In this document: positions 7,649-63,254 of the stretch, in pieces | Layout of the letters: every line of letters starts with the position of its first letter | Position numbering within the stretch: the stretch's first letter is position 1 | NCBI GenBank assembly: GCA_951406725.2 | Contig: OX597824.1 | Span: 64,108,001-64,172,000 of the forward strand | Direction of reading: 5' to 3' | Length of the DNA: 64,000 bases | Source of the DNA: Octopus vulgaris | Lineage: Eukaryota | Translations under genes and position numbers: made by a program | The notes under the pieces: model-generated | The model's input: the letters and a program-made list of their open reading frames with translations, nothing else | The model's database searches: none | What the model was told of the DNA's origin: nothing

Positions 7649-8219
7649 TCTGTGTGCGTATTTCTGTATGTGTGAGTGTTGTCTGATGTGTTTACATTTA
7701 GAAATGAAAATGAGAAAAAGAGTACTCAATCCCTTTAAAGTTGCTTTAAAATGTAGAGTCACTGAATCATTCAGCAGCTACTGTGATTTTTTTTTTTCAT
7801 TTTTTTTTTTTTACTTTATCAAAGTAATTCACTCCAACATAGCCTGAATGCCGACACACCTCATATGAAACTCTGAGTAGCTGTTGTGTGAATCAGAAGT
7901 ATAGCATGAATTAAAATACAATACCTACATATATACGTGCATGTGCATGCATATATGTATCTGTTTATATAACAAGTATATGCGTGTATGGGTATTTGGA
8001 TATGTGTTAGCATTTTTACAGCTGTGTGTATAGCCATGTTTGCCAGTTTAAATGTGTGTGTGTGTGTGTGTGCAAGCGTGTGTGTGCAAGCGTGTACATG
8101 TGTGCAGCAGAGACATGCATTTCTGTACCTATACGCCAAGTGATAGTCTTCCAAAGCCGGTGCAGCATTGCACACATAGTACATTCCCACCCTCTTCAAC
8201 TCTCTTCAAGAGGGATAGT

Positions 8220-8970
8220 GAGAGGAGGAGGAGGAGGGAGATGTAGTGGTGGTGGTGGTGGTGGTGGTAGTGGTAGTAGTAGTAGTGGTGGTGGTGGTAG
8301 TAGTGGTGGTGGTGAGGGTGGTGAGGGGGGTGGTGGTGGTAGTAGTAGTAGTAGTGGTGGTGGTGGTAGTAGTAGTAGTGGTGGTGGTGGTGGTGGTCAC
8401 TATGATTGTTGAGACAGTGGTGGCATGGAGGGGACGCTTAACAGTAGCAATGGTATTGATGATAGTAAATGTTTTTGCTGTCACTATTCTGTAGTGTTAG
8501 AGGTAGTAAGCTCTGCAGGTTGTGGTAGTAATTAGTGGTGGTGATAATTGGTATGATGGTGATGGTGGCAGTGATGATGTTCATTGTTTAGATGGTGGCT
8601 GTGTTACTGGTGGTGACAGAGGTGATTGTGGTAGTGGGAGTAGTAATTGGTATGGTGCCGATGGTGGTGACAACAGTTCTGCAGTTTATAGTAATAATCA
8701 GTGGTTGTGGTGGTGGTGGTGATTATAGTGGTGGTGGTGGTGGTGGTTGCGGAGTTAATAGCTGATGTAATCATGGCTGTAGCAGTGACACTGATGATAG
8801 TAAATGTTGTTGTGGTAGTGATAGTGGTGGTTGTATTAGCAGTGTTTCTGGCTGGTTGTATGGATATAGTTTTGATGGTGTTGGCCATGGTATTGATTAT
8901 GGTGATGGTGGGGGGTTTTCTTTTGGTAAAGATGGTTGTGGTGGTAGTCAGGATTTTGGGAGTGGTATTG
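8220..8970. repeat. Compound (GGT/AGT/GAT)n low-complexity tract
   Basis: Gives poly-G/V/T ORFs in all frames. Confidence 0.9.
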
Positions 8971-9444
8971 CTGCTTAGCAATACCAAGTCAAACCTTTGA
9001 TCAAAGGCATCCATCCACGCCCGTCACATCTTAAACATAGTCTATACTTCTGAATATGTCCCATCTATTTTTAAAAGGTAGTACAATGTCATTTGAGAGG
9101 GATCTGGTTGCCACATCTAGCATGATGAGAGACCAAATAAAAGCTACAACATTTGCTAATCTTGTTGTTGTTGTTACTGATGGTAGTCAGGATGGTGGTT
9201 CTGATGATAATGGTAGTGATGACAACAAAAACTGAAGAGGATGGTTGAAATTTGCTGCAAACTGAGCTATAGTAACACACACCTTGTCCAAATAATGCAT
9301 CTTTAACATCAGGGATTTTCAACCATTTTTTATGGACCCTTTTGATTACTATTTTATTCTGGTAGACCCCCCCATAGCCATTCAATGTTTAAAAAACTAT
9401 TTTTATAGAAACTGTTTTTTCAATATTACTGTTTTGTTTTTCAC

Positions 9445-9921
9445 ATCAAAATCAAATTCGATGACTGGCATCCATGCTAGTGGAGTGCTAAGAGTACCAT
9501 ACGAGTGAGATCGCTGCCAGAGCAACAAGCTGGCCTCCGTGCCGATGTTACGTTAAAAGCACCATTCAAGCGTGATCGTTGCCTGGATCACCTTGCTGGC
9601 ACTTGTGCTGGTAGCACGAGAAAAAACATTCGAGCGAGGTCGTTGCCAATGCAGCTGGACTGGTTCCTGTGCAGGTGGCACATAAAAAGCACCATTTGAG
9701 AGTGGCCGTTGCCAGTACCGCCTGACTAGCCCTCGTGCTGGTGGCACATAAAAGCACCCACTACACTCTCGGAGTGGTTGGCATTAGGAAGACCATCAAG
9801 CTGTAGAAACTCTGCCAGATCAGATTGGAGCCTAGTGTAGCCATCTGGTTCGCCAGACCTCAGTCAAATCGTCCAACCCATGCTAGCATGGAAAGTGGAT
9901 GTTAAACGATGATGATGATGA
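9445..9921 (+). mobile_element. RTE-tailed non-autonomous element with internal ~60-bp aaaagcacc repeats and (GAT)n tail
   Basis: Tail ..ccaacccatgctagcatggaaag.ggacgttaaacgatgatg. Further copies at 25896-26539(+), 53480-53640(+), 56310-56510(+), 11555-11785(-), 22875-23012(-), 35195-35620(-), 36575-36905(-), 46520-46845(-). Confidence 0.85.
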
Positions 9922-10150
9922 CATTAACTTGTGTAGGTTTAACTATACTAAATGTTAGAGAAAGAAACCAAGCTGTTTCTTGTAATAAATACATCTATAG
10001 CAAAAAATTTTCATGGGCCCTTAAAATACTATTGTGGATCCCTGATTTACTATTTTGTTATGTGGATCCCCAAAAATCTTATGTGGACCCTCAGGGCCAT
10101 ATGGATCCTGGTTGAGAACCCCTGATTTACACTCTTTCTCCTTGTTCAAA

Positions 10151-10192
<42 letters not shown>

Positions 10193-10232
10193 GTGGAAAA
10201 TAAAAAAAAAAAAACAAGGGTATAAATATTTT

Positions 10233-10446
10233 GTTCCTACATATGTTTCTCTATTGCAGTTATTTGGAATTCAGCATTGGATTCCAAATGCATTTGGATA
10301 CTAAACTGCAATGGATATTAGATCTCTATAACAGAATGCAATAAGGTGTTCCCCTGATGGCCTATTACAGTTCAGCATTCAAAAACACTTGAAACACCCG
10401 ATGTCAAGTCCCAGACAACTGCAATGGTAATACATAAGTAGGAACT
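10233..10446 (+). mobile_element. Inverted-repeat PLE-type relic with a degenerate long-stem-II hammerhead (10348-10445)
   Basis: Plus: GTTCC c CTGATGg cCTATTACAGTT..AACTGCAATGG taat ACATAAGT A GGAAC. The antisense arm at 10233-10266 keeps AACTGCAATAGA GAAACATATGT A GGAAC. Related copy at 46170-46490. Confidence 0.5.
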
Positions 10447-10497
10447 AAATATCTATGCTGGTGTTTATCTTAATTTTCCTCTACATATGCTCTGTAT

Positions 10498-10744
10498 GTG
10501 GTGGCATGTGACCGCATGGTTAGGCTGTTGCACTCACAATCACTAGATGGTGGGTTTGATTCTCTGTCTGGGCAGCATGTTGGGTTCTTGAATAAAACAC
10601 TTCATTTCATGTTGCTCCAATCCTTTCAATTGAGGGGAATGTGGGCCTGTCTGCCTAGCCAGCGGGTTGACGTCATTTGAAGGCTATGTGACCAATGATG
10701 CATAACAACATCTGATAGCCCAGTCAGTTATGTGATCACATGTG
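10498..10744 (+). mobile_element. tRNA-derived SINE (family D)
   Basis: tRNA-like head; 13-bp TSD atatgctctgtat at 10485-10497 and 10745-10757; its 3' tail recurs inverted at 27977-28090. Confidence 0.8.
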
Positions 10745-10832
10745 ATATGCTCTGTATATCATATCCTGTAACATTATATAGTGGTTGACTAACCACAAAA
10801 CTGAAAGAATACTGGATAATGATAATGTACAT

Positions 10833-11086
10833 CAGTGGTTATCAACCAAGGTCCATATATATGACCCTTGGAGGTCCACATAAGATTTTGTTGTTAAAAT
10901 TTATGTACAACAAACTGGTTATAGATCTCCAATACACAAAATATTTTAACAATTTTTTAAACAATTTCTAATAATATTTGATTATAAAGATAGAAGAGTT
11001 TTTATCAAATGGCTGAGGGTCCAACCAAGTAAAATTGGAATCAAAGGGCTTGATAGGTAAAAAAAAAAAATGATTGAGAAACACTG
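10833..11086. mobile_element. hAT MITE
   Basis: TIRs cagtggttatcaac / gattgagaaacactg; 8-bp TSD atgtacat / atctacat. Relatives at 9309-10124 (split by a retroposon) and 18539-18775. Confidence 0.75.
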
Positions 11087-11160
11087 ATCTACATGGAGCT
11101 CTAACTCATATAGTAGTAGTCATACAACTGACTGTACACATATGTGTGTGTGTGTATATA

Positions 11161-11225
<65 letters not shown>

Positions 11226-11309
11226 TTCTTTTTTGTCATATCATCATCATCATCATCGTTTAGCGTCCGTTTTAAACGATGATGATGATGATGATATGAC
11301 AAAAAAGAA

Positions 11310-11348
<39 letters not shown>

Positions 11349-12084
11349 AACAATTTGACAGTATGATGAAGGTGAGCAAGCTGAAACTTCAAAGTCACAG
11401 TCAACCTTTCCTTATAAACATTTATAAATAGAAATATTAAATTTTGCCTATATGGTTTACACTGCACACAGTTGTCCACATTAATTTTATATATATGCAT
11501 ACACACATGCAATATATACACAAATGTATACATACATGAATACATATATATTACATATCACCATTTAACATTCGTTGTCCATGCTGGCATGGGTTCAACA
11601 GTTTGACCAGGCGCTGCACTAGACTCAGTCTGATTTGGCATGGCTTCTACAGCTGGATGCCCTTTTTAACACCAACCGCTCCAAGAGTGTAATGGGTGCT
11701 TTTATGTGCCACCAGCATGGGTGCTAGTTATGTGACACCAGTATCTGCCACAACTACAATTTTACTTGGCTTGATGGGTCTTCTGTGTATATATACAAGA
11801 TTATATAAAGTTTATATACAAGATTATATAAAGATATTACTATAACATTATTATATATATATATATAATTTTGTTACAAGGATTCTTAAGAATCAAGGCT
11901 CATGAACTTTATAGGGCACCAAACATGGCTAGGTACAATAACACAGAGCTAACAGTAAAATAAACAATATTAAACACGCCAAGTGTTGGCAGGATACTGT
12001 AAATATATATAAGTACCAAATCCAATATAAACCATAGATCCAACTGAGGGGCAGATCTTTGGTGCAGTCTAAGTACAAAATGGT

Positions 12085-12414
12085 GTTTAAAATTTACAAC
12101 AGCTGTTTCGGTAGACTTTTATATAATGCAGTTGTAAAGATTTCATATCCTTGTATTGAATATATAACATAATGAAACTGTGGGGAAGAAAGTATGTACA
12201 CAATGCACTACCATTTCTATTACATGAGGTTCAATACTCTGTATCAAAGGCTCACAGTGACTGCTACCAACACCAACTGTCAATTGCTCATAGTTCTTTA
12301 CTTTATAATGAGTCAGTACACCTTTTAGTCATTTGGTGGGTGGTTGGAATCCTTCCACAACAAAAAGATTACATCATGATATAAAATACACCATCATCAT
12401 GTAAAGTTTTAAAC
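12085..12414 (-). ncRNA. Hammerhead motif with ~275-nt stem II insert (C3 mutated)
   Basis: Minus strand: gtttaaaa-c-TTTAC aTGATGA t GGT ...~275 nt... ACC GAA ACAG CTGT T GTAAA-ttttaaac. 13-bp helix I with one bulge; palindromic helix III ACAGCTGT. Confidence 0.6.
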
Positions 12415-13054: not shown

Positions 13055-13097
<43 letters not shown>

Positions 13098-13913: not shown

Positions 13914-13917
<4 letters not shown>

Positions 13918-13988: not shown

Positions 13989-15589
13989 TATTATGAGAGG
14001 TGGGGGTGAGCTACATTCAATGACAAATCATTAGCCATGAAAACCAGAAAGCACATCAGGAATGTAAACAAACACCACCATCAAGGCCTACCTAATTTGT
14101 AAACACCTATATCTAATATCATGTGTGTGATCTATATTCACTATAACCGGTGTCTCTTGGGCATGGTGGTGGTGGTCATTACCATCATGGTTGCAGGAGT
14201 GACAGGCTCTGTAGTTGATCCATCAAATGCTAGTGTGAACTACATGAATTATTACAAAACTAGAGTGTTACCCATCAAATGACAAGTAACATTGGAAGCA
14301 TACTTTTACTACCATTAGTATCAAGAATTATAGCATACATACATCACCATCATCAACAATTAATGTTCGTTTTCCAAGCAGGCATGTTGCTGGATGGCTC
14401 AACAGGAACTGGTAAGGCCAGGGGCCACACCAGGTTCCATAGTCTATTCTAGCTTTTCCCATAACTACTCTGGTATTTACTACCTGTCCTCTTCCTATTA
14501 TTTGACTCTTCCTCTCAACACATCCTATACTTCTTATGTTAATTCTCTGAGTATCTCTTACTCCCACTTCTCTCTATACAATGTAAAGCATAACTGCAGA
14601 AATCAACCAACCAACTACCATTTATGTCAACTCTTATTATACAAAGACAATGTTTGTCATTATAAACTTTTGTATTCAGTTTTAATTATTTCATAATAAA
14701 CTGTTTACATACTTTGATAAAGTATGTTGTTGTACCTGCGTACACGTTGGCATATATGTCTGAGTGCATGTGTGAATGTATGCATATGTCTGTGTAACAT
14801 ATATGCAACTGCAAAGACATGCAAGAAGTTGTTTTGATCATAGGATATTGGCCTGATCAGGACTGTGTTGGTCAAAATCTAGTAGTCAACATCCCTCATG
14901 GCCATCTTCAGAAGGCACAAGTTTGGCTGTGTAGTAAGAAGTTTGCTTCACAACCATGCCGTCTTGGGTTCAGTCAAACTGTTCAGCACTTTGGGCAAGT
15001 GTCTTCTACCATAATCCCAGGTTAATCAAAGCATCTGAGTGCATCTTATTCAATCTTTATTGGTTGGGAATAATATAAAGTCAATTAATTAAACCACAAT
15101 GAGTATAGTCCTCCCTTTATCATGAGAGATTCACAATACATTTATTCATCAAGCTTGGACACAAACATAGCTAGATGGTTAAGAAGTTTACTGAACAACC
15201 ATGAGATCCCGGGTTCAATGTAACATCATCATTTAACATCAATATTCAATGTTAGTACCAGGTGAATGGTTCAATAGGATCCAACAGACTTGAGAGCTTC
15301 ATTGGTTCCTGTGTCTGCTTTACCATGGTTTCTATGGATGGATACCCTTCCTGACACCAACCACTTTACAGAGCATACAGGGTACATTTTTCATGGCACC
15401 AGCACTAGTAAGGTTACAAAGTAACTTGCAGGACAAGGATCCTAAACTGAGAATGGGCACAGAATTGCAGAAGATGTTGAGGTGATAAATGAACAGGGAC
15501 AGGTGTCTTGCTAATGAGGAGATACATGGCTATACCAACAGGAAAGAAGAAAGGATGGTTGTGATGAGTTTTCAGAATATCCTCTCAAG

Positions 15590-16140: not shown

Positions 16141-19100
16141 ACAGATCTTGATGCAACATATTTTACAATAACCTCAGGTTGACCAAGTATAATTGGAAAA
16201 TTGAAGACCCTGAAGAAGCTTGTCAGATGAATTTTTACTTGTAATTCAAAAGATCAGCTTATCACATGCAATATCACATGCTATATCCCATTAGTGCAGC
16301 TTGAGAATTATGCTATGAGTGTGTATGTCCATGGTATATTCAGACATATAAATTTAATTTCAGTTCATCAAATAGCTAAATGTTCATTATTAAAACTGGC
16401 AGAGGATCTGACAATCCATCAGACTTGAAGAGAGAGAGAGTGTGTGTGTGTGTACATGCACACATATATATGCATGCACATATATATGTATGATGGACTT
16501 CTTTCAGTTTCAATCCATCAACTCCACTCACAATGCTTTGATTAGCCTGGGATTATGGTGGAAGACACTTGCTCAAGGTGCTGAACAGTTTGACTGAACC
16601 CATGACTGCATGGTTGTGAAGCAAGCTTCTTACCACACAGCCACACATGTGCCTTCTGAAGATGGCCATGGGGGATGTTGACAACTAGATTTTGACCAAC
16701 ACAGTCCTGATCAGGCCAATATTCTATGATCAAAACAGCTCGAGTATGAACAGCCCATCTTTTCCTCCCAAGGTAAATTTTATTTAAGTTGGACTACAAA
16801 CATGTCTCTTTGCCTTAAATAGATTAATAACACAAGGAATACTTGGCTGAGACTCCTTCCATTACTCTTGCATAATATGTAACTAAAAGTGGCAATGTAT
16901 CATATCGTTAGTCCTCTAGGCTTACAAGCAACAGCAGTAGAAGTAAACCCAATCTCAACACAAAACTATTCTGTCTTACAACTTTATACTGGCTTTTTTT
17001 TTTCTTCCAGAGTAATTCAGTGACAAAAATAACAACAACAATAGCAACTGTCATGACAAATTCAAGGTCACAATTATGTTTAACCCTGAACAAGCAAAGC
17101 TGACCCTCCATACTACAAAAAAGTCAGTGAATATATGATGGTGAAGGAGAGAGAGGAGGGAGGGCTTTCTTGGCATATAATTAGTGTTAATCACATAGAT
17201 TCACTCTTGACTATATCCATAGATTTATATTTAGTCAATGTTACTGTCTCATAAAAATAACAAAACTAGTTGCTTAATGAGAGAGAAAATAACATATAAA
17301 TAGCCAATGTTTGTTGTGGACAATAACCATTGCTCCTTGTCATCACCATCCCACATATCCAACTATCAGCAAATTAGGTGCCCTTTTTCTCCAGCCATCA
17401 ACAAATTAGGTGCAATTTGTTGTCTTTCTGCATATTTGCTTGATTGATAGCTGAAATATGATTTGTATTTACTGTTTAATCCAGAAAGAAGCCAAATGTC
17501 TATAATAATGGTAGGGAAGGAGGGAGGAAAATGCAGTCAAACCAGAAAGTTCCCAAGGGACCAAGAAGTAGTGTTGAACCAGAAGGTGTATTAACTCTAC
17601 TGCATAAACAGCCCACAGCTAGATTTGAACTCAGAAGACAAAGAGCCAAAACAAATACTGCAAGGCATTCTGCCTGATCCTCTGCCAACCAATCACCTTA
17701 GATTGATACTTTTTTGTGTTGATTCTGATGGGACGAAACAGAAAGCTGACCTCAGCAGCATTTGAACCCGGAATGCAATGAGTTACAACAAACACCAATA
17801 GGTGTTCTATCTGATGTTCTATCAACTCTGCCAATTCAGAGCCACTTCTACTCCAATACTGAAAATAGCATGCAAGTATCATACATAAACCTTGTGCACA
17901 GCTGCTACCACTTTATCACACATATACAAATACACCATCTAACTAATCTAACCACCAAAAAGTGGTTCACCACTGTTTTCATTTATTTGTTTGATTACTT
18001 AAGTGTTTGTTCATTCCTATATCACAGAAACTGCTGAAGCTAAGAAATCCAAAATGTTCGGTTATTATGGCAACATAATTACATTTTCCTTCCCATTTTG
18101 TATTTTTTAACAAGTTTATTTGGGTATCAAGTACAAGAACCAGCTCTATTTGACATGCTGTATGATAGATGAGGTACAGAAACAAATGTTACAAATGAAA
18201 CAAAATACACCAGAAACAGTTATATGATTTCCACCAAACATTGACAACTAATGATAGATACTAGTTCAAAAAATATTCAAATATTGATCATTTCCAAAGC
18301 TAAAACAGTTTTTTTTATTGCCACTCTTAATATTAGCATTTGATTAAATATTTCTTCTGCAATTATTTAATGAATAACAAAACATCTAACAGTCCTAGAT
18401 GGTATCAAATGCAGTTAAAATACTTGTTACTAATAATGAAATAATTGAATTGACAGTGTACTCCATATCACCTCTAAGAAGGAGAAGGAACACAGTTGAT
18501 AAAATTCAATAGGTTATTTTAAGTGGGTTGCAGTTAAAGCATGGATTATCAACCAGAGTCTATATGGCCCTTGGGGGAATGTCCATATAAGATTTTGTTG
18601 TTGAAATTTATGTGCAATAAATTGGTTCAAAAGTATTTTAACAATTTTTTTATACAGTTTCTAATAACATATAAATATGTAATAAGATTATTTTAACAGT
18701 TTATGGCTGGTTCGAGCATAAAACAAGTAGAATATTAGGGATTTATGTAGCTAACCAGAGCGTTGATAAACATCTGAAATGATCTTGAGCAAAAGGTTGC
18801 TGAATTGCAAGCAAACTGAATTTGGAAGAGAGCAGTGATTTAAGGTTACATCTCCATAATTTCCAGCCAAAAATCGATGCAATAACTAGTATTTTACCAA
18901 TCAGCATTTAAACTGGCAATATTCAGCCCAAATATTCTACCTGTTTATTCTCAAACCAGCTACCCTACCATGTCATTCGAAAAATATGCAATCACATCAA
19001 ACTTTCAAAGCTATGAGATAATGTTTGACTAATTTAAAACAATGTGAATAAATAAGTATTACATTTCATATTAATTTATGTTCCAATTACCAGTTTAATA

Positions 19101-23660: not shown

Positions 23661-23707
<47 letters not shown>

Positions 23708-23940
23708 CATCGGATTTTGGTAATTTGTGCCTTTCGAAACACGTGTAGAATGAAATAAAACGATTTCTGTTCAATCTGCGTTCAGCTCCATTTCTTCAAT
23801 TCACCAATAATGTTCTATATATATATATACATATATATATATATACAACAGGCTTCTTTCAGTTTCTGTTTACCAAATACACTCACAAGGCTTTGGTCGG
23901 CCCAAGGCAATAGTAGAAGACACTTGCCCAAGGTGTCATG
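23460..23940 (-). mobile_element. SINE family A
   Basis: Reverse-complement match to 41-507; 5' truncated. Confidence 0.85.
23704..23815 (+). mobile_element. PLE-type 3' fragment with hammerhead 3' half, inserted in the (AT)n of a SINE
   Basis: cGAA ACAC GTGT A gaat followed by aataaa; no CTGANGA half present. Confidence 0.4.
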
Positions 23941-24252
23941 CATATATATATATATATAAATCTGTTTCCATGTTTTTGTTTTTATGTTTTCGTTTCTCAT
24001 TGTGTTCAATGTTTTTTTGGTGTCCTGTACCCATATATGCATTTATATATACATATAGATGTAGGTATGTACATATATGTATGTATATATGCATATGTTT
24101 TATATATTATTTTGTTATTACATATATTTATATATATATATATATACATATTTTGATAAAAATGGTAAGACAAACAAAAGAATGAAAGAGACCTCGATAA
24201 TATATAAATAGAGGAATTTATCTGTAAAAGTAATATGTGACAATTGTTCGGT

Positions 24253-24327
24253 AGCCATGATAAAACTCCGAGTTTCGGATGCTGGGGTGGAAATCCGCAC
24301 CGCCATCTCTTCAGTTATCGGATGACC
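24253..24327 (-). ncRNA. Type I hammerhead ribozyme motif (PLE-type), core intact
   Basis: Minus strand: ggtcat-cc-GATAA CTGAAGA GATG..CATC C GAA ACTC-G-GAGT T TTATC-atggct. Helix I 5+6 bp, extended helix II, palindromic helix III, GUU cleavage triplet. Confidence 0.7.
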
Positions 24328-24328
24328 A

Positions 24329-24395
24329 GATAACTGAAGAGATGGCAGCATGGATTTCCACCCCAGCATCTGAAACTAGGAGTTTTATCATGGCT
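24329..24395 (+). ncRNA. Inverted twin hammerhead motif (helix III mismatch)
   Basis: GATAA CTGAAGA GATG..CATC tGAAACTAGGAGT T TTATC; right arm of the 24223-24425 palindrome. Confidence 0.6.
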
Positions 24396-25013
24396 ACCGA
24401 ATAATTGTCACATATTACTTTTACACACACACATATCATGAGGAAGTTACTAAACAATATATGTGTGTGTGTGTGTGTGTATATGTAGGCACACACACAC
24501 ACACACAGTTGTAGTATGAGATATGGATTCTGAATATTGTGTGGCTATGAATGTGTGTGTGTGTGTGTGCAAAAAATGTGAAGCAAACCAACAGGAAATG
24601 TGTAAGTAGTAGTCTTGCTATTCATTGCAGAAGAACTGCATTGTAATGATGGTGGAGAGGAAATGAGGTAATAAAAAGAATCATAGGTAGGCTGGTCAGG
24701 TAAGTTGATTTGACAAACAAGTGATAAAAACATTAAGAAAATCTGATGAGAAATTTAATGATAGTGGAAACAAACAAAAAGAGAATAAACAGTTTAAAAA
24801 GGTACACAGTCTAAGTATGACTGACATTAATTAACCAATTTTTTTTTCCACGTGTTTTTAGAAAAACCTGTTTAACTTGAGGAATATGGTGAGAGATAGT
24901 TGAAAGCTATCATTTCCAATATCATTTACCATATTTGGGTATTTGAAAAGACATTCTGCTTCTAACCCTAAATGTCTTTTTTCTTCAACTGAATCTTGAG
25001 GGGGAAAAAAATA

Positions 25014-25069: not shown

Positions 25070-25547
25070 CATTATGCCCTGATGCAGTACTACAGTGGCT
25101 CTCATGGCTTCTGATCTTAACTGATTGGAAGCGTTATCATGTACATTGTTTTGTCGTGGTATGAAAGATGGGCACAGCAAATATTCTGCTCAATACCACA
25201 GATTTGCTTGTCAGTTGTTTGACCTTAACCAGCTGACCATGTCCCTTAGTGGCTGATGATATGTGCATCTCTGATCATGAGCAGAAATAGTGAGGGAGCA
25301 TCATAGCCGTGTGTTGAAAGGAATCCTTAGAGGTTTGGATAATTTACCTTTGGAAACATGGGTGGTTCGTTCAACATCCTTAAACAATCTTCATTCAGGG
25401 ACCTTTTGAGTGGAATGGGCTACTCGACCAGAAGAAAATTCCAACTGGGCTCCACCCGCAAGGTCATGCGCTGTTTATCTTGATATGAGATCACCATGTC
25501 GCACACATATGGTTGTGATGCATGTGCCTGGTGTACCCTTATCAGAC
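25070..25547. mobile_element. Copy of the (TAA)n-associated element
   Basis: Follows (AAT)n at 25012-25070; homologous to 1244-1640. Confidence 0.75.
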
Positions 25548-29474: not shown

Positions 29475-30399
29475 AAGCATAAGTCAGAAGTATAGTACCC
29501 TCATTTAACCCCATTTCTTAATTTATCTATGTCATACAAAAACATTTCACTAAACTCTGGAACTTCTACCTTTATAAGTAGGCTGTAACATCCTTGGCAC
29601 TTATGTGAATGTTTGCTACTCTGGTAACTATTTATATATTTTTTCTGTTACTTGTACATATTGAAAAAATACACATACATTTATATATACATATATATAT
29701 GCATGTGTATGTATAAATTTGTGTGCATAAGTGTGTGTATGGGTATGTTTCTGTGTGTGCACATGCACTCACAAAAGATACAGAAAGGGAGAGCAAGGGA
29801 CTGTTGGAAATAGAGAGACAGACTAGAGAGGGAGAGGGAGATAAAGAAAGAGACAGTATAAAAGAATAGCAAAGAAAAACTTAGAGTAACAAAAGACAGC
29901 AGACAGGGTAGCAAAACATATGTAGAAAGAGATAAAGGAGGACAAAAAAAAAAGAAACTGATAAAGAATGAGAGAGCAGGTTACCATAATATAAATTAAT
30001 GGCAACAAAGATAGAAAAGGAGGGAAAATGAGAGAGAGAGAGGGCAAGATAACAGAATGATGGGAGAAAGGGAAGGGAGTGTGTGGGAGAAAAGACATGT
30101 AATCTGGGTTAATACCTCATAATAATAACAATAATAATGATGATGATGAAGATGATAAAAATAATAATAGTCATAACGATGATGACAATAACAATGGAAT
30201 TCAGTGCAATCTTAATAAAGAGATTAATTCCTACCTGATATTTCACATGCAGAGTACAGGTGACAACAGACAGATGGGTAAGTATTGTAAGTACATAAGG
30301 CAATATATATGTCAGTTTTACCCCTTTTTACTTGTTTCAGTCATTAGACTGCGACCATGCTGGTGAAACCACCTTGGATATGATCAGAAAGATAGGGTT

Positions 30400-31060
30400 T
30401 GAGTATACAGGGGTGCTAGAAAGAAGTTAGATAATATTATATGTAATGAAACCAGAGGTACCTGCCTTAGATCTTGAAGCAAAGACTGGAATAGAATACA
30501 AAGAGCTTGTGACAAAGCAAACTGGGTGAACACGAGGTATAAAACTGACAAATATCAAGGAGTGATGTTTGTAGAGGCGACAGCCTATGGAGAACTAGCC
30601 TGTAGATTTAGGAAAGCTCTGAAGGAGACTAAACTCAACATTAAGACTGTTGAAAAGGCAGGGAACTCCATCAGATCACAACTATGTAGGACATACCTCT
30701 TTGAGAATACCATATGCACCAATGATAACTGCGTGGTAAGTAGGATTAGCCCTGGCATTAACTGTAGCACTAGCAGAAGATGGATAGAAGGTGCTTGTAA
30801 AGACATGAACATGACATACATAGAGGAGACATCTAGGAGTATTGCAGAATGACTAAATGAGCATCTGAGACAATATGACGACAAAAAAACAGTCCTCCAT
30901 ACTCTGCCAACATGCCAAGGACCAAAATGGAGGCAACCTGGGTCAACTTGACTTCCGCATTTTATCCAAGCACCCAAGGGATCCAACCCTCAGACAAATA
31001 CAGGAGTACGTCCTCATAAATGAAACATCCCCAGTGCTAAATAGGAAATATACGTAGTAG
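30400..31060 (+). mobile_element. Penelope-like element C-terminal linker + GIY-YIG endonuclease, pseudogenised
   Basis: VMFVEATAYGELA..KTVEKAGNSIRSQLCR..C..C..C..CKDMNMTYIEETSRSIAE*LNEH, then after a frameshift HAKDQ..FRILSKH..LRQIQEYVLINETSPVLNRK, typical of PLE GIY-YIG ends. Confidence 0.8.
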
Positions 31061-32065
31061 GTAATCATACCACCATACCCACAGTTTATATTCATATACA
31101 GGTAGAATAGTTAGTGGGCTGTTATGTAGATGTATGTGGATGTGTGTGTGTATATGTATATGCACATGTATGTAGGCAAAAGGATGTGAAAGTAAACAGA
31201 TAGACATATATAATATGAACAGACAAGCACACATACGCAAATGAAGACTAAAACACATGACCGTATACACACACATTCACACAAGGATACATATGGAGAC
31301 ACACACATCCACACATATGGGGATATACATCCATACATAGACACAGTACATAGTCACAAGATCCCATACACACACAGACACACTCAGACATGTACACAGA
31401 CACATGCAAACAAACACACACACATAAAAACACAAAATGACAAACACATAAACACATGAATATGCAGAATACATGCATAAAAACGTACACACATACATAT
31501 ATACACACACACACACATACATGCATGCATACACACTTATATGCATGCATAAATACATACATACATGTGTATGCACATACAGTGACCCCCACACGTGCAC
31601 ACAAACAAACAATAACAATGCAGCTTGGATGATGGGCAGAGTCAACAACTATTGAGAAGGTTGCAAGACACAACGAACATTTTAGAAGAATAAATAAGTA
31701 AATGAGTGGAAACTTTACCAGTGAGTGTGTTAAATTATAAGGCATACTAAAAGAGAATGACTCACCCCCAGACGAAACAGAATATACAATATACATATTA
31801 TCTATAACACATATACAATATATATAGTTCTATATTTAAGAGATGAGGTATTATGTACATTATTTACCTTACTTACATTTGATGGCTATTTATCCTCATC
31901 ATGTTTTCTGTTAACACATTTCAGCTGATATACCCTCTAGCCTTCGGGCGGGGGGGGGGGTGATTTTGGGGTCATGAGGTCTTGGTTATAGCTCTAGTTA
32001 AGATTTTCAAATGCCCAATTCTATCTCACTATTATCATAATATTCTGTCACCAGCAATTTGAGTA

Positions 32066-32105
32066 CTGATGAAGGCTGGAGGGTATATCAGCCGAAACGT
32101 TGTGT
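32066..32105 (+). ncRNA. Minimal hammerhead motif of a PLE-type terminal repeat, 5' helix I strand lost
   Basis: CTGATGA a GGCTG gagggtatat CAGCC GAA AC GT T gtgt; degenerate inverted copy at ~31856-31946. Confidence 0.65.
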
Positions 32106-32213
32106 TAACAACAAACAAGATGAGGACAAGTATCCGTCAAATGTAAATAATGTATATATATCTATATCTTATATATATATATAACACATATACAATATAT
32201 AAAAATATATATA

Positions 32214-32479: not shown

Positions 32480-33015
32480 TATCCTCTGACCTCTACCGGA
32501 TGTCTCCCATGAACACTTCTAAAGGCTTATGCCCCACCAACCCATCCCTACTTAGGGTATAAGATTTATACATAGGTATAAGATATTCTGGGCAGAGAAC
32601 ACTGATGTGGGCATGGGTATACTTCTTGCAGAGATATAGGTTGATAAGGTAATCGAGATAGTCCGAGTCTGTGATAGAATACTTAAGATTAGATTACTGC
32701 TGCATCATGGGTTAGCAACCATCATCTTGGCCTATGCCCCCAGCCAGGGCTACCTGATGGACAGAAAGACCGATTTTATGGCACCCTCTTGCAGACTACC
32801 TCGTCAATAAATGACAGGGACCTTCTCTTTGAGGCTGGTGACTTCAATGGGCATGATGGACAACATGCAGGGGGATTCCAAGGTGTACATGGAGCCTATG
32901 GTTTCGGTTCCCACAATGAGGAAGGAACCAGGCTGCAGGAATTTTGTGATGCAAATGATCTTATGGTTTGTAACACTATCTTCAGGAAACCTGCCAGTCA
33001 CCTATTCATCTACCG
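32480..33015 (+). mobile_element. RTE-clade LINE APE endonuclease fragment
   Basis: GILLAE..VCDRILKIRL..AYAP..AGDFNGH.G..GVHG.YGFG..NEEGTRL.EFC..NDL.VCNT.FRK. Confidence 0.85.
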
Positions 33016-34378: not shown

Positions 34379-34506
34379 AACAAACATATATATATATATA
34401 TATGGAGGTCTTCCGGGTGGTCTTTTCCGCTCGCGTGGGTACCACTGCACGTCAATCGGGCCACTCCATTATGGCGGAGTACAACTCGAGCGATGAGAGG
34501 CTGCTA

Positions 34507-34549
<43 letters not shown>

Positions 34550-34556
34550 TGTTTGT

Positions 34557-34600
<44 letters not shown>

Positions 34601-34610
34601 GACAGAAACA

Positions 34611-34709
<99 letters not shown>

Positions 34710-34946
34710 TAGCAGCCTCTCATCGCTCGAGTTGTACTCCGCCATAATGGAGTGGCCCGATTGACGTGCAGTGGTACCCACGCGAGCGGAAAAGACCACC
34801 CGGAAGACCACCACGACAGTGGAGCTACGATTTTCGGAGTACAATTGGGATCACGTGGATGAGAAAGATGCGATCTGGAGAGGAGTGGACAGCGTGCTGT
34901 GACCAGCGGTGTCAAATGGACACCTGGCGGACTGGTTGGTCAAGTG

Positions 34947-35735: not shown

Positions 35736-35792
35736 AAAAAAAAAGAAGTTTGAAAACGCCACTATATAAGATAAATTTTAATTTTCTTAGAA

Positions 35793-35841
35793 ATTTTACA
35801 TGTTTCGGTTCTTCTTGAAAAGTCAAACCTTATCAAAAATA
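35793..35841 (-). ncRNA. Degenerate hammerhead motif
   Basis: Minus strand: ATTT tTGATaA GGTT tgacttttcaagaag AACC GAA ACATGT A AAAT; two core substitutions. Confidence 0.5.
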
Positions 35842-36518
35842 TTTTTAAAAGTGTAATAAAAAAGTTCATAATTGTTTCTTACTGGTCTCAACAGAATCCA
35901 CGTGGTGGTTCTTTGTGGGGAGTAAGCATAATAGCTGTCTTATGTGTTCGAATAAAATTAAGGAAATGACCTTATATGAACAGGTCGCAGTCTCAAAGTG
36001 ATGAAAATATTTGACAAATTAAATTTAAATGTTGAAGTGAATTTAACGGTTTTGTGTGTTTCTTAAATGGCTTATAATGGCTGATATATGTACACAGAAA
36101 CTGAAAGAAGACTGGTGTATATTTGTGTATGTGTGTGTGGTTTGTGTTTGTACCCTCATCATTGCTTGAAAACTGATGTTGCTGTGTTTACATTCCCATA
36201 ACTTAGCGGTTCTGCAAAACACACTGATAAAATAAGTACTAGGCTGACAAAAAATAAATCCTGTGGTCAATTTGTTCGACCAATGGCGGTGCTGAAGCAT
36301 GGCCACAGTCACACGACTGAAACAAGTAAAACAATAAAAACAACTATGCCATTTTAATCCCAAAGGCCAGGTATCTCTGCTAGTATATATATATATATAT
36401 ATACTATCATGCCCAAATGATGTTTTTTGCATGCCAGTAAGGCAATGTTGGTAACGATCACACTCAAATTGCGCTATATATATATATATACAAATATACA
36501 TTCGGATAGATAAATGTA

Positions 36519-46169: not shown

Positions 46170-46490
46170 AATTATGATAGATACAAATTCATATTTTTTG
46201 TTCCTCACCAAGATTTCAGCATTGTGGTTATTTGCAATGTCAGCATTGGATGTTCGAAATGCAACTGGATCCTGATCCACAACAAATCGTCAAGGGCATG
46301 TACTTTATTGCATTATGTTAGCTCAACTACAAAGATTTGTGTAACATAGTGCAATAAAGTGTTCCCTGATAAATCTATTCAGGTCTAGCATCCTACTCCA
46401 CTTGAAACATACAGCGAAGTGGTTGCAAGTAACCACAACAGTGAAATGTATGCAGAAAACGAATTATATAAATTTGTGTTTGTCATAATT
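46170..46490 (+). mobile_element. Second copy of the 10233-type inverted-repeat PLE relic
   Basis: Terminal inverted repeats aattatgatagatacaaatt / aatttgtgtttgtcataatt; GTTCC CTGATaA ... GAAATGTATGCAGAAAAC; shares cagcattgga, gcaataa.gtgttccc and cacttgaaaca with 10233-10446. Confidence 0.45.
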
Positions 46491-57645: not shown

Positions 57646-60615
57646 TGATGAAGTAATGAATGGTGATGAAAGAACTTTGACAAACTAGCTGATTGGTTGA
57701 TTCATCAAATGATTAATCAAGCAATCAATTAGTTAATTGGTTAACTAACTGACTAACAATAACTGTTTCAAATTTAGTTACAAGGCCAGTAATTAGGAGG
57801 GAAAAGGATTTAATCAATTATATCAACTCAATACTTGATAAGTACTTTTTTTATCAACACTAAATGGAAACGTTAACCTAAGTAGGATTTGAACTCAGAA
57901 CATAAAGAGTCAAAGCAAATGCTGCAAGGTATTTTTTACCAATGTTCTAACAATTCTGCCAGCTCACTGTTTTTGTTTTATTTTATTTTATTTTGTGAAT
58001 ACAATAATCTTTTTTACAATAGGCACAAATGCTGAAATGTTGGGGTAGGGGGCTAGTCGTATATATCAACACTAGTGTGTAACTGGTACTAATTTCATCG
58101 ATCCCAAAAAGGTGAAAGGCAAAGTCAACCTCAATGGAATTTGAACTCAGAACATAAGGACAGACGAAATGCCACTAAGCATTTTGTCCGGTGTGCTAAC
58201 AATTCTGCCAGCTCACTATGTTTTCTGCCAGATACAATAATAAAAAGAAACTGAGTGCTTCTTATTGGCAAAATTATTCCACCACCACCACCATCCAACA
58301 ATATGTACTTAAAGTCACACATTATCTGAACAGTTATTCATCTATTCAAATATTTTTACCATTCAGCAGAGAGTGAGTACTGAGGATCAGCAAGATTGAC
58401 CATCAAACAAACAAGTCAGTAGTTGAGGTGACAGCCACAGAAAGAGAATTTTCAGCAATTGTCAAGAAGAGAAAGCTGTAGTGTTTTGGTTATGTCATCA
58501 GGACTCAGAACCAATGGGAAATGAGGAAGAGAGAGAGACTAAGATGAGGAAACACTGGATGGACAACCCCCAAAGAATGGACCAGAAGATATCTGGCTGA
58601 AGGCACAACTATGGCCAGAGACAGAAATCAGTGGCGAGAGATGGTGCATGTGTCCATGGTGTCTGCGAATCTGTTATTTTTCATTACTGATATATCAATA
58701 CTGATAAATAACAGCTGTAGTGCATAGCTGTTATTTGTTAATATTTACATTTGCTAGTTATGTCTGCAATATTGCTATTATTTTTCATGCCTGTCACATG
58801 CAATGCTGTTGTTTTTTTCTTGTACCTTAATAATACATAATTTCTTCAGTAAAGCCCAATAAATCTGCTTTAACTTCTTTGATGTCCCTGTTTATTTACT
58901 GGCTTCTGGTACTGAACTACAATCATGCTGAGACCCCAGCTTCGAGGGATTTTTCGTCCCCCCCTCCTCCTCCACTCAATTATATCGATCCCAGTAATTA
59001 ATTTTGGTATTTCTTGCACTGATGCTTATCAGAGATACCAAAGGCAGTAGTGTAAAGGGAGATAACTCAGTCACACATATAATGCAAACTATTTTTGTTT
59101 GAATGTATGAGTTTTTATTCACACAATGTTGATACAAAAGTGTGCATGAGAGTCCTCAGATTAGCGTTTGCCAGTGTGATGCACTTCTTTTATTCCTAAG
59201 TGTACCAAAAAACAATTGCCTAATGTAACTGTGGGATACGGAGATGAATAAACAAAAGTCTACTGTACATAATAATTGTTATTTATAATAAAATATTGAA
59301 AACAAAGCAAAATATCAGACAGTTACCACAAACTTACAAAAAGATTGCCAACATGTTTGCAATTATGTGAAGGAGTCATATCATCTCATTATACCATCTT
59401 CCACAGCAAAAAGAACTCACATCTGATATGTCTTACATTATTTAATGACTGTGTTACCTTTCAGAGATATTTTTTGATTAGCTAAATTAAAATTCTCCTA
59501 GAAAGACAAAATGAATGTTAAACATTCATCTACCTGTCAGTTATTTGTTAAAAACTACAAGCATTACATTTTGTAGAACAATTCTCTTGTCCAAAATATG
59601 AGCTGTACAGTTAATCTGAAAGAAGATTAAACTGAGATATGGTACTTTATATTGGGTTGTCTGGAAAGTTCGTGCCGATTTTTAAAAGAAAGAAAACAGT
59701 CAATAAATACTAGCCTTTACATTTTTAATCAACCAAATATGATGCTAGATGCCCTTCCTAACACCAACCATTTTTCAGAGTGTGCTGGGTGCTTTTAATG
59801 TGGCACAAGTGCATTTATATGGCAGTGGCACAGGTGCTTTTTATGAGGCACCAGAAAAAGGACCAAGATATTTGGTGCCTTGCTGTACTCAAGAAGACCT
59901 GTCATCCACAACAGAAATCTCATATACTTTATTAAAAAAGCAAGTTAAATAAAATACATTTTCTTCAACAAAACAAAATGTATTTTGTTTGACTCATTAT
60001 TTTTAATAATAATTATATATATTTCAAGAAATTGGAGAAGGGTTATTAGATGTGAATGACTAAAGAAAGAAAAAAAAGAATGAGAGAAGGTACAACATAG
60101 ACAAAGAAAGAGTAAGAAGGAAACAAAAAAGGCAGAAGAAAATAAATGCCTGTTACAATAAATGTTGTTAATTAAATATGGTTCTCATGTTAATGGTTTG
60201 TATGTCCACATTCCTACATTCTCAGCATTTGCAGAGTTTGTCTACTTTTATATTTTTCAAAATAATCATAAGTACTATATCTGCATGATAACTAAAAATA
60301 TGAGACTTAAAATGCTATGATTAAGTCTAAATATCTTAAGAAAGACAATACATTAGTGTGAAGTAAAAGCCCACAACTCAACAAAAATATACAGAAACTT
60401 ATTTTAAACCCATTCAAAATTATCCTCTATTTCATGAGCTTCAATATGATTATAAAATGGAGGATCATCAACAGAGCATGATTTAACAACAATAATAGAA
60501 GACCATACATTTTATGTATGCCAGAAACATTCAAAATATTTTCTGGCCAAACTACTTTCATTAATAAAGAATTACTGCATACTGGCACAAAATATACCAA
60601 CCAATAAATACCTTA

Positions 60616-60887
60616 GTGGAAGCACATGGCCTAGTGGTTAGAGCAGCAGACTCACGGTCGAGGGATCGTGGGTTCGAATCTCAGACCGGGCAATGTGTGC
60701 GTTTATGAGCAGGTAATTAAATATTGTTCTCATGTTAATGGTTTGCCACAACATTCTCTCACTCTTTCCTCCTGCATCTAGCAGCTCACCTGCAATTGAC
60801 CGGTGTCCCATCCAGGTGGGAAACCTATATGCCCAGGAAACCAGGAAACCGGTTCTATGGGCCAGGCATGGCCCAAGAAGGAACAAA
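60616..60887 (+). mobile_element. tRNA-derived SINE (family E)
   Basis: A box tggcctagtggtt, B box ggttcgaatc; 14-bp TSD caataaatacctta at 60602-60615 and 60888-60901. Confidence 0.85.
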
Positions 60888-62104
60888 CAATAAATACCTT
60901 ACCAGCAACATTTACACAAACAGATAACATTCATTACTATATCAAGTTCAAATCATTCAATTTAATTCTCCCTAACTCCCCTAGGAAATTAATCTCCCAT
61001 GTCAGACATATATACATTCAACTGTTTATATGCAGACAGTAGAGTATTATCCATAATATGACAGGTAACTCTGGAAGTATGTTTTGCCACTCTGGGTGAT
61101 ATCAGAAAATATGACATAAATACAATTATTTAATTTTTATCAAAATTTTGGTGCTTATACAAAATGGTGAAATGAATACCAATTTTCAAAAGAAAAATAT
61201 TTATTAACCCAAAAGAAAACTAAACTTCTTATTTGTGTAACTCCTCCCATAACTGTCCTGTCTTTTGCTCCCTCTCTTCCCTTTATCGTCTGCCTCTATG
61301 ATGCTTTCTCTCTACTCATCCTGCACCTCTTCTGTTAACTCACTCTATCTCTCCATTACACTTACCCTACCTTTTCAAAGCAATGGAAAACATGACTGGA
61401 GATACCAACCAACTAATATTTATATACAGACATTCAAATTATTATTTCTCAACATGTAAAAATGACAGGCTAGTATAAAAGAGACTAGGCTAATATGTTC
61501 TTTTGTATGATTGTAAAACTAGTATGAATGCTGTATAAACTGAAGTCACTGTATGAATGTTATAGGTTTCAAGGCAGAAAACATTACTCATATTCACACC
61601 ACAAAACTGTCATGTATACAATACTTGGATATTTCTCTTAAACTAGTCAATAATGCATTTTGACACCTACCCACTCATATGTTTACATGTCCTGTTCAGA
61701 TCAATAACATTCATTTTAATGTTAATACAGCTAACATTTAAATGTTTCATTTTATGTTTCTATTTATATACATTATGTCACAACATCTTGTGAGGAAACT
61801 TGGTGGATGAAAACTGTGCAGAAGCCTGTCTAGTGTAGCGTGTGTGTGTGTGTGTGTATCTTATCTTTCATCTTTTACCTGTTTCGGTCATTAGACTGCA
61901 GCCATGCTGGGACGCTGACTTGAATTTTTAGTCAAATGAATTGACCCCAGTACTTCTTTTTTAAGCCTAGTAGTTATTCTATTAGTCTCTTTTGCCAAAC
62001 CACTAAGTTATAGGGATGCAAACACACCAACAGTTGTCAAGCAGTGGTGAAATAGACAAAGAAAGAAAGAAAGAAACCTACACACACACACACACACACA
62101 CACA

Positions 62105-62972
62105 CAGGGTGCAGTGAATAAATTGTCATCTAAATTACACAAAAATTAAAATAACACTGACATCTCATTTTAACAGATATATTTACCAAAATTACATAAA
62201 AATATCTTGAAATACTAAAGAGTAAATTTATTCAATAAAATCGCCATTGGTTTTCAACCATGACCTCCAGACAACATCGGAATCTCCTGCAAATCTTCTG
62301 GACAGTCTCCTTGTTTAAGTTGGTGAACTCTGCCATTAGCCTTGCCCTCAGTTCATCTTTGGCGTTACAAGGAGTTCTGTTGGTCTCTCATTCAACTGCA
62401 CCACACACATAATAATCAAGGGGAGTTAGGTGGGAGATAGGTCTGGGGAGTTAGGTGGCCAGATGTTAGGGGCGATGTGGTTGCAGAAATTGTCTGACAG
62501 CCATGACTGGATTCTCCTGCTTGTGTGGCATGGTGCAGAGTCCTGTTGCCAGACATAGAGCCTTCCAGCAGCCACCCTCTTGACCCAGGGCGGTACTACC
62601 TCCTCCAGGCACTTGATGTTGAATCTGAGGCCGTGTGGGAAGATGAATTGAGGAATAACATCACCATCATTAGTGGTCATTCCAAACACCATGACATTGA
62701 CTGGATATTTGATTTTTATCATTCTTGATACATGTCCTCAGATTGATACCCAAAACTATGAAATGTTCATATTGGAGCTTCTGGCACGAATGCCAAGCAG
62801 TACAGCATTTCATTTCCAAATTTCTGGTAGAATGAATTGTCTCATGGTGCTATTTTTCTCACAGATGGTGCCCAACTGACTTTACTATACTGTGTAGTTG
62901 ACAAAATCAAAACAATGTACATGCGCGAAATTAAAAATAAAAAATGGTGACAATTTACCCATTGCACCCTCT
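62105..62972 (-). mobile_element. Tc1/mariner superfamily, DD37D (maT)-type, internally deleted
   Basis: TIRs cagggtgcagtgaataaattgtca / tgacaatttacccattgcaccct; VMVFG..WQQDSAPCH..WPPNSPDL..PLDY. Spacing of 37 residues once a short local duplication is removed. Confidence 0.8.
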
Positions 62973-62979
62973 GTGTGTG

Positions 62980-63067
<88 letters not shown>

Positions 63068-63218
63068 CATACATACATACATACATACATACACATGAGT
63101 AAGCACACAAATTCAAAACAAAGTGGAAAAAAACAGCCCTCAAATATCAAAGGTAGAGTAATATGCTTTTTTATTAAAGCTGCAAAAACATTACAACTGT
63201 ACCATCACATTCGTTATC

Positions 63219-63254
63219 AACTGCCTGATGAATGTGAAACTCTGAGTAGCAGTT
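63219..63254 (+). ncRNA. Hammerhead motif with collapsed stem II inside an inverted-repeat element (63163-63293)
   Basis: AACTGC CTGATGA atgt GAA ACTC-T-GAGT A GCAGTT; 6-bp helix I, GUA triplet, only 4 nt between the core halves. Confidence 0.6.

Follow-up and report, generated by a model that had tools for sequence, protein, structure and literature searches.

Hammerhead ribozyme motifs in this stretch of the Octopus vulgaris genome very likely belong to the ends (pLTRs) of several Penelope-like element (PLE) families. Four of these families are linked to coding sequence, and the other three are likely PLE ends as well. In the window, by which we mean the whole 64,000-nucleotide stretch analysed, the copies are short ends, most of them decayed, and premature stops of the reverse transcriptase (RT) likely account for them. 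The original prediction of ribozyme-bearing, PLE-derived retroelements holds for the type I fold, the palindromic helix III, the many unrelated families, and the PLE link. However, the view that the elements are mainly non-autonomous is not supported, because families B, C, F, and G join open reading frames (ORFs).

Hammerhead families in the window

Nine of the ten places where motifs had been named are copies of seven multi-copy families (A to G), in agreement with the proposal of at least six unrelated ones. Family copies were the top-scoring 20 to 30 of each search, not a random draw. The majority sequences, built from 24 to 29 other copies per family, restored a complete type I motif in all seven families. 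Because they restore parts that the window copies have lost, the motifs are real and not due to chance. The core (C3-U4-G5-A6-N7-G8-A9, G12-A13-A14-A15.1, and U16.1-H17) is retained as predicted, in complete or known variant form. It is standard in the majorities of B, C, E, and F, has U3-A8 in G and U4C in A, and is standard with one variable column in D. Such variants may, reportedly, already be listed by Lunse et al. 2017. Helix I has 3 to 6 bp, helix II has 3 to 11 bp, helix III is palindromic, and the open end lies in helix I. Sequences differ across families while the fold is kept, a comparison that is partly built into the descriptor.

We compared the motif density with that of dinucleotide-shuffled sequence, a check set beforehand, and found it higher. 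A strict type I descriptor gave three hits in the window, whereas 30 block-wise dinucleotide shuffles averaged 0.03; one of the three, at 2172, looks like chance. A second descriptor, which requires helix II and allows U3-A8 and U4C cores, gave two versus 0.1. In a 600-kb genome sample there were 23 matches versus 0.9 in shuffled 600 kb. It is scarcely credible that the motifs are all chance matches in AT-rich repeat DNA, even though five of the 23 sample matches look chance-like and single window copies have no folding advantage over shuffles (z between -1.2 and +1.1). Helix III is palindromic in 25 of 29 cluster representatives from the sample, a feature that the descriptor favours, and four clusters carry U3-A8 in place of the C3-G8 pair. 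The shuffle controls in window and sample, together with the family profile matches, refute the chance reading.

Most single copies are incomplete, and only three of the ten sites keep all hammerhead parts. Two of these form the family B pair, in which a minus-strand arm (24225 to 24321, complete hammerhead at 24259 to 24319) stands head-to-head with a plus-strand arm (24324 to 24422, near-complete hammerhead at 24329 to 24389 with one change in loop III). The third is the family G end on the minus strand (35772 to 35900), with a complete hammerhead at 35793 to 35840 that has the U3-A8 core swap. Families B and G are young, with 93 to 96% identity among top matches, which explains why these copies are intact. 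In the older families the whole core is kept in 12 of 29 (A), about 6 of 29 (D, from an imperfect parse), and 9 of 24 copies (E).

The other sites are relics. The family A copy (63165 to 63277, plus strand; motif at 63219 to 63254) has lost helix II, with 4 nt in place of the family's 10, and has a short inverted remnant upstream. The site at 7839 to 7890 (plus strand) has a deviant core and is only a weak family A-like relic; its 3' half gives a 28-nt match to the family A profile (E 0.001), and a search for a second copy returned one match, the site itself. The two family D relics on the plus strand have damaged 3' halves and decayed cores. The first (10342 to 10459, motif at 10348) has a long stem II, the core CTGATGG, and a decayed 3' GAAA, and the second (46355 to 46474, motif at 46361) has the core CTGATAA. 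Each has an inverted partner arm on the minus strand, at 10220 to 10316 (3' part only, E 3.6e-16) and at 46186 to 46298. The family E relic (12079 to 12412, minus strand; motif at 12093 to 12405) has A in place of C3, and its stem II is split by a 228-bp foreign insert. The insert is an unrelated multi-copy repeat (12136 to 12369, minus strand) flanked by ATCTTT duplications. A query with the whole 366-nt span fetched only this repeat; the 3' flank alone recovered the hammerhead family. The family F end (23706 to 23815, plus strand) holds only the 3' half of a hammerhead (23731 to 23750, named at 23735) and a tail between (TA)n runs. It is the end of a young coding PLE, and all 40 scored candidates were full-length matches of 100% identity. 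Family C is present as an inverted minus-strand arm truncated inside stem II (31871 to 31946) and a plus-strand arm cut at the core (32066 to 32155, motif at 32066 to 32106), which lacks the 5' strand of helix I and the tRNA-like head described below. The nine sites in 64 kb bear out the proposed density of one per 6 to 7 kb for the relics of this window. An Rfam scan of the window gave no hammerhead among the 150 of 274 matches listed, nearly all of which were microsatellite-driven miRNA matches.

The hammerhead fold lies 0.6 to 9 kcal/mol above the monomer minimum free energy in six families. Family D was excluded from the pair counts, because its helix III was parsed one column off. Within the six families, 8 double changes stood against 119 broken pairs among 2,026 cells, as expected under unselected decay. 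Another reading is that the host retains the ribozymes for cutting or regulating a pre-mRNA transcribed across the window. Three copies are complete and the density is high. However, the intact copies belong to young families and both strands are used. None of 142 scanned non-repeat ORFs (of 214) matched Pfam at E<=0.005, a scan that showed no host exon and did not confirm the proposed intron, and the intact-motif density equals that of the genome sample (P 0.57). Host use is thus very unlikely.

The claim that copies are usually left as inverted pairs held in part, as an inverted partner accompanies four of the nine sites in the window and 81 of 195 copies fetched for the families. The family B pair (24222 to 24425) is predicted to form a near-perfect hairpin of -163 kcal/mol. 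Inverted arms lie on opposite strands, so they cannot supply a dimer partner in cis, and modelling suggests that the pairs fold into long hairpins rather than dimer ribozymes.

Coding sequence upstream of the hammerheads

RT/GIY-YIG coding sequence lies upstream of the hammerhead, in the same orientation, in B, C, F, and G. Family F has 3,624-bp tandem units, each with an RT plus endonuclease (EN) ORF of up to 899 aa that stops about 600 nt ahead of the hammerhead. ORF sequence is present in 10 of 25 family F loci, and 5' ends range from 34 to more than 1,500 nt. The ORF had no Pfam match at E<=0.005; by eye, we take its motifs to be those of RT and GIY-YIG. Contigs from four runs guessed to be RNA span 30 of 30 bins of the F unit, with no start, end, or circle junction, and are not evidence on expression.

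In family C, coding sequence lies upstream in 4 of 30 loci, and a reading frame opens just before the hammerhead as read from the sequence. The majority sequence of 25 ORF-seeded C loci has a 519-codon open RT-EN frame; a sense hammerhead lies downstream in 11 of them and an inverted one upstream in 12. Sense GIY-YIG coding sequence lies upstream in 2 of 25 family G loci, and RT/endonuclease homology in 3 of 20 family B loci seeded with the far 5' UTR. Among 30 loci of A, 30 of D, and 25 of E, each taken with 1.5-kb flanks, no link to an ORF appeared, save one weak match (E 0.003). The layout of EN+ PLEs is seen in the F tandems, the 5' truncation, and the inverted truncated partners, with tails on part of the copies. 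Sequence comparison thus indicates that four of the seven families are ends of coding PLEs. Because B, C, F, and G run upstream into coding sequence of the same orientation, their short copies in the window appear to be 5'-truncated PLE ends, a pattern described in 2014.

A PLE GIY-YIG relic had been noted in the window (at 30400 to 31060). No link emerged between this broken PLE linker/GIY-YIG relic (30376 to 31048, plus strand) and the seven families. At about 49% identity it resembles a different PLE (L197:6919-7839), whose own Pfam match to GIY-YIG is weak (E 8e-4), and a young copy of this relative has no hammerhead behind its ORF. These results give no support to the relic as the mobiliser. 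That every family is a non-autonomous, retrozyme-like element spreading via circular RNA with the help of such a PLE is, in our view, unlikely. Most copies are shorter than 400 nt, A, D, and E have no ORF link, and vertebrate retrozymes are reported as PLE derivatives in the available part of one account (10.64898/2026.07.22.740005). However, four families are coding-PLE ends, and the relic is only about 31% identical to the family C endonuclease. Short head-to-tail hammerhead tandems were not seen in the window or in 195 family loci, one 245-bp family C duplication (L306/L307) aside.

We suggest that these PLE ends arose as follows. The GIY-YIG domain of the element would nick AT-rich DNA such as (TA)n. 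RT would begin within the tail that directly follows the hammerhead and in most cases stop after 50 to 600 nt, so that the hammerhead region would be deposited most often. Extension from both strands would give head-to-head pairs. In a full-length tandem element, the palindromic helix III may let two hammerheads cleave as a dimer. Lone inserted copies would decay, and a long sense-antisense hairpin would trap those that are paired; most copies would therefore not cut host RNA.

The tRNA-like head of family C

The family C pLTR opens with a tRNA-like head that has A-box-like and B-box-like motifs at tRNA spacing, as judged against the box consensus. This head forms the start of the end repeat, for which transcription by RNA polymerase III (Pol III) is predicted. 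When the query is excluded, 25 of 29 head-seeded C copies start within a few bases of the first base of the head; 15 of these are fold-backs and 10 have unique flank. With a uniform truncation rate derived from family F, an interval of this size would receive about 2% of starts. This sharp 5' end misfits random truncation and counts against reading the C copies simply as truncated PLE ends.

One explanation is that short C copies are a self-propagating, tRNA-headed SINE of about 250 to 400 nt (head, (AAT)n, hammerhead, and tail), in which solo pLTRs would be transcribed by Pol III and then copied in trans by the PLE protein. The shared start and the box spacing favour it, as do a hammerhead within 700 nt of the head in 23 of 30 copies and the presence of TTTT in only 2 of 18 head-to-tail units. 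However, TTTT is also scarce in family D (4 of 30 copies), and the scarcity of T4 runs in the C ORF is marginal (0 versus 2.7 expected, P about 0.05). Of 29 loci, ARAGORN recognised a tRNA in one, and Rfam found none in locus L076. The head also lies within the coding element's own 3' repeat (13 of the 25 ORF-seeded loci), and a full-length RNA that starts in the upstream pLTR would give the same 5' end. In addition, a small hairpin at the junction could set the fold-back points. A non-coding unit distinct from its autonomous partner, as expected of a SINE, was not found, since the whole C unit is the coding element's end repeat. This explanation is possible, but we doubt it. For family C, the non-autonomous idea thus lives on in altered shape. 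In the explanation that we favour, the template RNA of this PLE likely often began at the tRNA-like Pol III promoter at the head of the pLTR.

Abundance in the genome and comparison with known systems

Before counting density and families in the 600-kb sample, we dropped by eye the five chance-like matches and 5 of 34 clusters. About 18 intact-looking motifs remained, which extrapolates to 50,000 to 130,000 genome-wide; counting 22 gives 64,000 to 155,000. The sample holds about 30 hammerhead families, with U3-A8 and U4C cores included and the latter common. The window does not stand out from the genome in intact-motif density. Counting just the seven families of the window gave 13 sites in 600 kb versus 9 in the 64-kb window (P 1.5e-5), an excess that reflects ascertainment bias. 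Adding families found elsewhere gave 40 sites from 21 families, or one per 15 kb as a lower bound.

A broader proposal, to which we give somewhat less than even chances, is that a PLE pLTR captured a tRNA-type Pol III promoter in family C. Its thousands of solo ends would be a PLE-mobilised ribozyme SINE, and the coding RNA possibly a Pol III transcript. Genome-wide, intact-looking hammerheads would number on the order of 100,000 and fall into at least 30 families, a natural library of U3-A8 and U4C core and long-stem-II variants. If true, a tRNA-promoter pLTR would let an autonomous PLE give rise directly to a SINE-like element, and roughly 10^5 motifs would be about ten times the reported counts in fish, frog, and schistosome genomes. 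The class itself is known. About 30 sequence-unrelated hammerheads offer material on dimer cleavage, protein dependence, and tolerated core changes. The genome also offers young, probably active families, given near-identical copies and intact tandems of family F. Pre-mRNA would also gain many long hairpins from the head-to-head pairs, which may be relevant in animals with heavy A-to-I editing.

Our search of the open literature, outside subscription journals and Repbase, found no report of a tRNA-promoter pLTR or of cephalopod PLE hammerheads, although supplements may list octopus families. In the available part of an account of PLE hammerheads (PMC4209133), which mentions no cephalopod, the published motifs share with ours the type I topology, palindromic helix III, short helix I, and many families per genome. 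They also include an extra base after A9 (C and E here) and the U3-A8 core (G here). Both sets are mostly single motifs from truncated PLEs, with opposite-strand pairs 100 to 700 bp apart and few copies in full PLEs; inverted 5'-truncated copies are also described elsewhere (PMC8557442). The octopus differs from what is given there in that helix III palindromes are mostly 6 to 9 nt, not 4, stem II regions reach 60 to 100 nt, and U4C cores are common. Our extrapolated 50,000 to 130,000 compares with 2,000 to 9,000 reported in schistosome, coelacanth, and Xenopus, with differing descriptors.

The available text on Poseidon PAc of the green anole (PMC11167929) describes a pLTR hammerhead with a tail behind it, AT-rich targets, nicking and extension of both strands, internal RT start, and protein-dependent cleavage. 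The first three features resemble the octopus elements, and a further likeness is the family C frame that opens shortly ahead of the hammerhead; a tRNA-like head, as in family C, is not described in that text. Metazoan non-LTR retrozymes, as far as the accessible accounts go (PMC7229834, PMC7761336, and 10.64898/2026.07.22.740005), are alike in their type I hammerheads, short non-coding units, and PLE connection. However, retrozymes are by definition head-to-tail tandems in which every unit holds a hammerhead, and they give circular RNA and have no promoters. The octopus copies, in contrast, lie dispersed or head-to-head, and ORFs are present in four families. In the schistosome Sm-alpha/Sj-alpha SINE-like elements a hammerhead follows a Pol III promoter, which is the arrangement suggested for C, but the part of the source available (PMC6765202) presents them as tandem non-coding repeats that free monomers, whereas the C head lies inside a coding PLE's pLTR. 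Helenus/TRIMp3 (Kojima 2024, PMC10886601) likewise has a tRNA-derived Pol III promoter in its terminal repeat. In the accessible portion of that description it is an LTR-type non-autonomous TRIM with PBS/PPT and no ribozyme, and family C would be its PLE parallel.

Hammerhead families represented in the window

The window has a GC content of 36%, with abundant dispersed repeats and (TA)n/(CA)n tracts, and at least 46% of it matched repeats in the retrieved genome loci. None of the 142 longest of its 214 non-repeat ORFs had a Pfam match, a result that speaks neither for nor against the predicted intron. A strict type I hammerhead descriptor matched the window three times, versus 0.03 in shuffled sequence. 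A second descriptor, with helix II obligatory and two known core variants permitted, matched twice versus 0.1. The motif coordinates of the original prediction were accurate on recheck, and the motifs were denser than in shuffled sequence. Because the window copies were mostly incomplete, we searched the genome (2.8 Gb, 227 contigs) with each site as a query. At least six unrelated families had been predicted; seven (A to G) were recovered, with 56 to 1,837 first-look candidates each, which are not copy numbers. Site 7839 matched only itself.

Majority sequences of 24 to 29 other copies per family restored complete hammerheads. This test is not circular where a family supplied a part absent from the window copy: helix I in C, the 5' half in F and C3 in E. 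Family A (63219) has the core CCGAYGA, a 3-bp helix II and the helix III palindrome ACTC-T-GAGT. Family B (24259/24329) combines CTGAAGA with a long helix II and ACTC-G-GAGT, and family C (32066) has CTGATGA plus an extra A, with ACGT. The stem II region of family D (10348, 46361) spans about 70 nt. Family E (12093-12405) carries an extra U and ACAGCTGT, family F (23735) carries ACACGTGT, and family G (35793) has ACATGT and the core TTGATAA, a U3-A8 swap. At 12136-12369, a 228-bp repeat with a 6-bp duplication interrupts the family E stem II; it had 682 first-look candidates at about 80% identity, including three copies about 400 bp apart on one contig (C24).

Pieces of further mobile elements lie at 2261-2800, 32693-33000 and 62429-62737: RVT_1, with an E of 4e-6 and a weak hAT tail, plus APE endonuclease and DDE_3, both weakly matched. 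A common 180-nt SINE-like repeat occurs at 16468, 23823, 37588, 44664, 50095, 50914, 53976 and 63326, and two of these eight copies adjoin hammerhead relics at common (TA)n tracts. Inverted 208-nt arms at 14827-15034 and 16533-16740 (93% complementarity, 1.5 kb spacing) both carry CTGAAGA behind a SINE end, without a GAAA half. Two plus-strand copies of an abundant repeat (1346-1560, 25253-25470) have the order CTGACGA/CTGATGA, GAAAC and a later CTGAAGA. At 34403-34813, a (TA)n tract sits between 144-nt inverted arms (99% complementarity, 123 nt spacing), apparently a head-to-head or TIR insertion of very recent origin.

Density, decay and inverted pairs

Sixty 10-kb stretches, placed over 28 large contigs irrespective of content, gave 23 descriptor matches versus 0.9 in eight shuffles. 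Removing five chance-like matches left 18, or one intact-looking motif per 33 kb, which scales to a genome-wide total of 50,000-133,000 (95% Poisson interval). The two matches in the window are typical of this sample (P 0.57). When relics and intact copies of known clusters were counted together, the density was at least one per 15 kb. The predicted one motif per 6-7 kb fits the window (one per 7 kb) and is of the same order as this genomic lower bound. Across all retrieved DNA, the descriptor gave 150 matches in 34 clusters, of which 29 were kept; as it misses D and F, about 31 families were seen. Helix III was palindromic in 25 of the 29 cluster representatives, four clusters had U3-A8 and nine included U4C.

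Of 2,026 helix cells within six families, 1,805 were unchanged and 119 broken; pairing was preserved by a single change in 71 and by a double change in 8, and 23 were gapped. Core variation in family A matched the prediction from CpG decay of CCGACGA. The fold appears to have been kept across diverged families, a comparison partly built into the descriptor, and deposited copies decay.

Copies had been described as usually left in inverted pairs. We found an upstream inverted partner at four of nine window sites and in the following fractions of family copies: 22/30 in A, 19/30 in B, 12/30 in C, 2/30 in D, 8/25 in E, 9/25 in F and 9/25 in G. The pair at 24222-24425 has a computed hairpin of -163 kcal/mol (z -31). 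Because the arms lie head to head on opposite strands, any transcript combines a single sense hammerhead with the antisense copy, an arrangement that would block the ribozyme instead of supplying a dimer partner.

Coding sequences and the tRNA-like head of family C

The predicted link to Penelope-like elements (PLEs) held for four families, B, C, F and G. All 40 scored family F candidates were full-length matches at 100% identity, and four copies spaced 3,624 bp apart proved on retrieval to be tandem units. Their ORF, at most 899 aa long, carries RT- and GIY-YIG-type motifs and stops about 600 nt upstream of the hammerhead. The family F 5' ends are scattered (34 to >1,500 nt), as expected under random truncation. 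Family C had upstream RT/endonuclease coding sequence in 4 of 30 loci; when that sequence served as the query, 25 loci gave a majority open frame of 519 codons followed by the hammerhead region. Upstream GIY-YIG coding sequence was found in 2 of 25 family G loci. The family B UTR is long and microsatellite-rich; among 20 loci retrieved with its far end, three had RT/endonuclease homology in the same orientation. For A, D and E, one weak match aside, no ORF link was found in flanks of 1.5 kb. These are older families, 72-96% identical to the window copy, and they too are probably PLE ends.

The PLE relic at 30376-31048 shares 49% identity with another PLE and only about 31% with the family C endonuclease. 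In the retrieved locus L197, the copy of that other PLE (6919-8859; RT end and GIY-YIG) is duplicated head to head in inverted orientation and abuts the family F tandem on its upstream side. It terminates in (TA)n about 60 nt past its stop codon, and no canonical hammerhead is visible there. Hammerhead families are also nested, with E followed by the tail of A in L215 and a B pair within a G UTR in L195, consistent with a common target preference.

Family C runs from a stop codon through a 75-nt tRNA-like segment, (AAT)n and about 55 nt to the hammerhead. The segment contains A-box-like and B-box-like motifs. Of 29 head-seeded copies (query excluded), 25 start at the first bases of the head and four extend into the 3' UTR; random truncation at the family F rate would place about 2% of ends within such a short interval. 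The hammerhead lies within 700 nt of the head in 23 of 30 copies, and TTTT is present in just 2 of 18 units. The shared start and the scarcity of TTTT favored a separate tRNA-headed SINE. However, ARAGORN called a tRNA in only 1 of 29 loci, Rfam gave no tRNA match in locus L076, a small hairpin sits at the junction, and family D is likewise poor in T runs. Moreover, the head lies within the end repeat (pLTR) of the coding element itself in 13 of 25 loci. This last result shifts the preferred reading from a separate SINE to a pLTR headed by a putative tRNA-type promoter, which may drive Pol III transcription. Both window copies of family C lack the head. The (AAT)n tract is repeatedly interrupted by LINE-like 3' ends with (AAT)n tails (L062, L065, L067, L069, L070, L072, L074, L290, L301, L312, L313), reflecting either an insertion hotspot or template switching.

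Relation to known elements

Retrozymes require head-to-tail units (PMC7229834; PMC7761336; 10.64898/2026.07.22.740005), and short units of this kind were not seen in the retrieved loci of the present families, one 245-bp duplication in family C aside. This difference and the four ORF links argue against reading the families as mainly retrozyme-like, non-autonomous elements. PLE hammerheads cleave weakly and as dimers (PMC4209133; PMC6765202). The motifs described here may also cleave. U3-A8 and U4C are natural variants, the latter with reduced activity (PMC3088659). For the element PAc, hammerhead cleavage depends on protein, and insertion in vitro does not need the hammerhead; both strands are nicked and extended at AT-rich DNA, and RT starts internally (PMC11167929). 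PLEs typically leave inverted truncated copies and target microsatellites (PMC8557442), and a 2014 paper covers nearly all features of the original prediction, opposite-strand pairs included (PMC4209133). In a recent annotation of octopus repeats, 31 Penelope-like families are classed as recently active (PMC13282606); our literature search for hammerhead and octopus did not return this paper. The octopus motifs thus belong to an already known class, and what sets them apart is their scale and one tRNA-headed variant.
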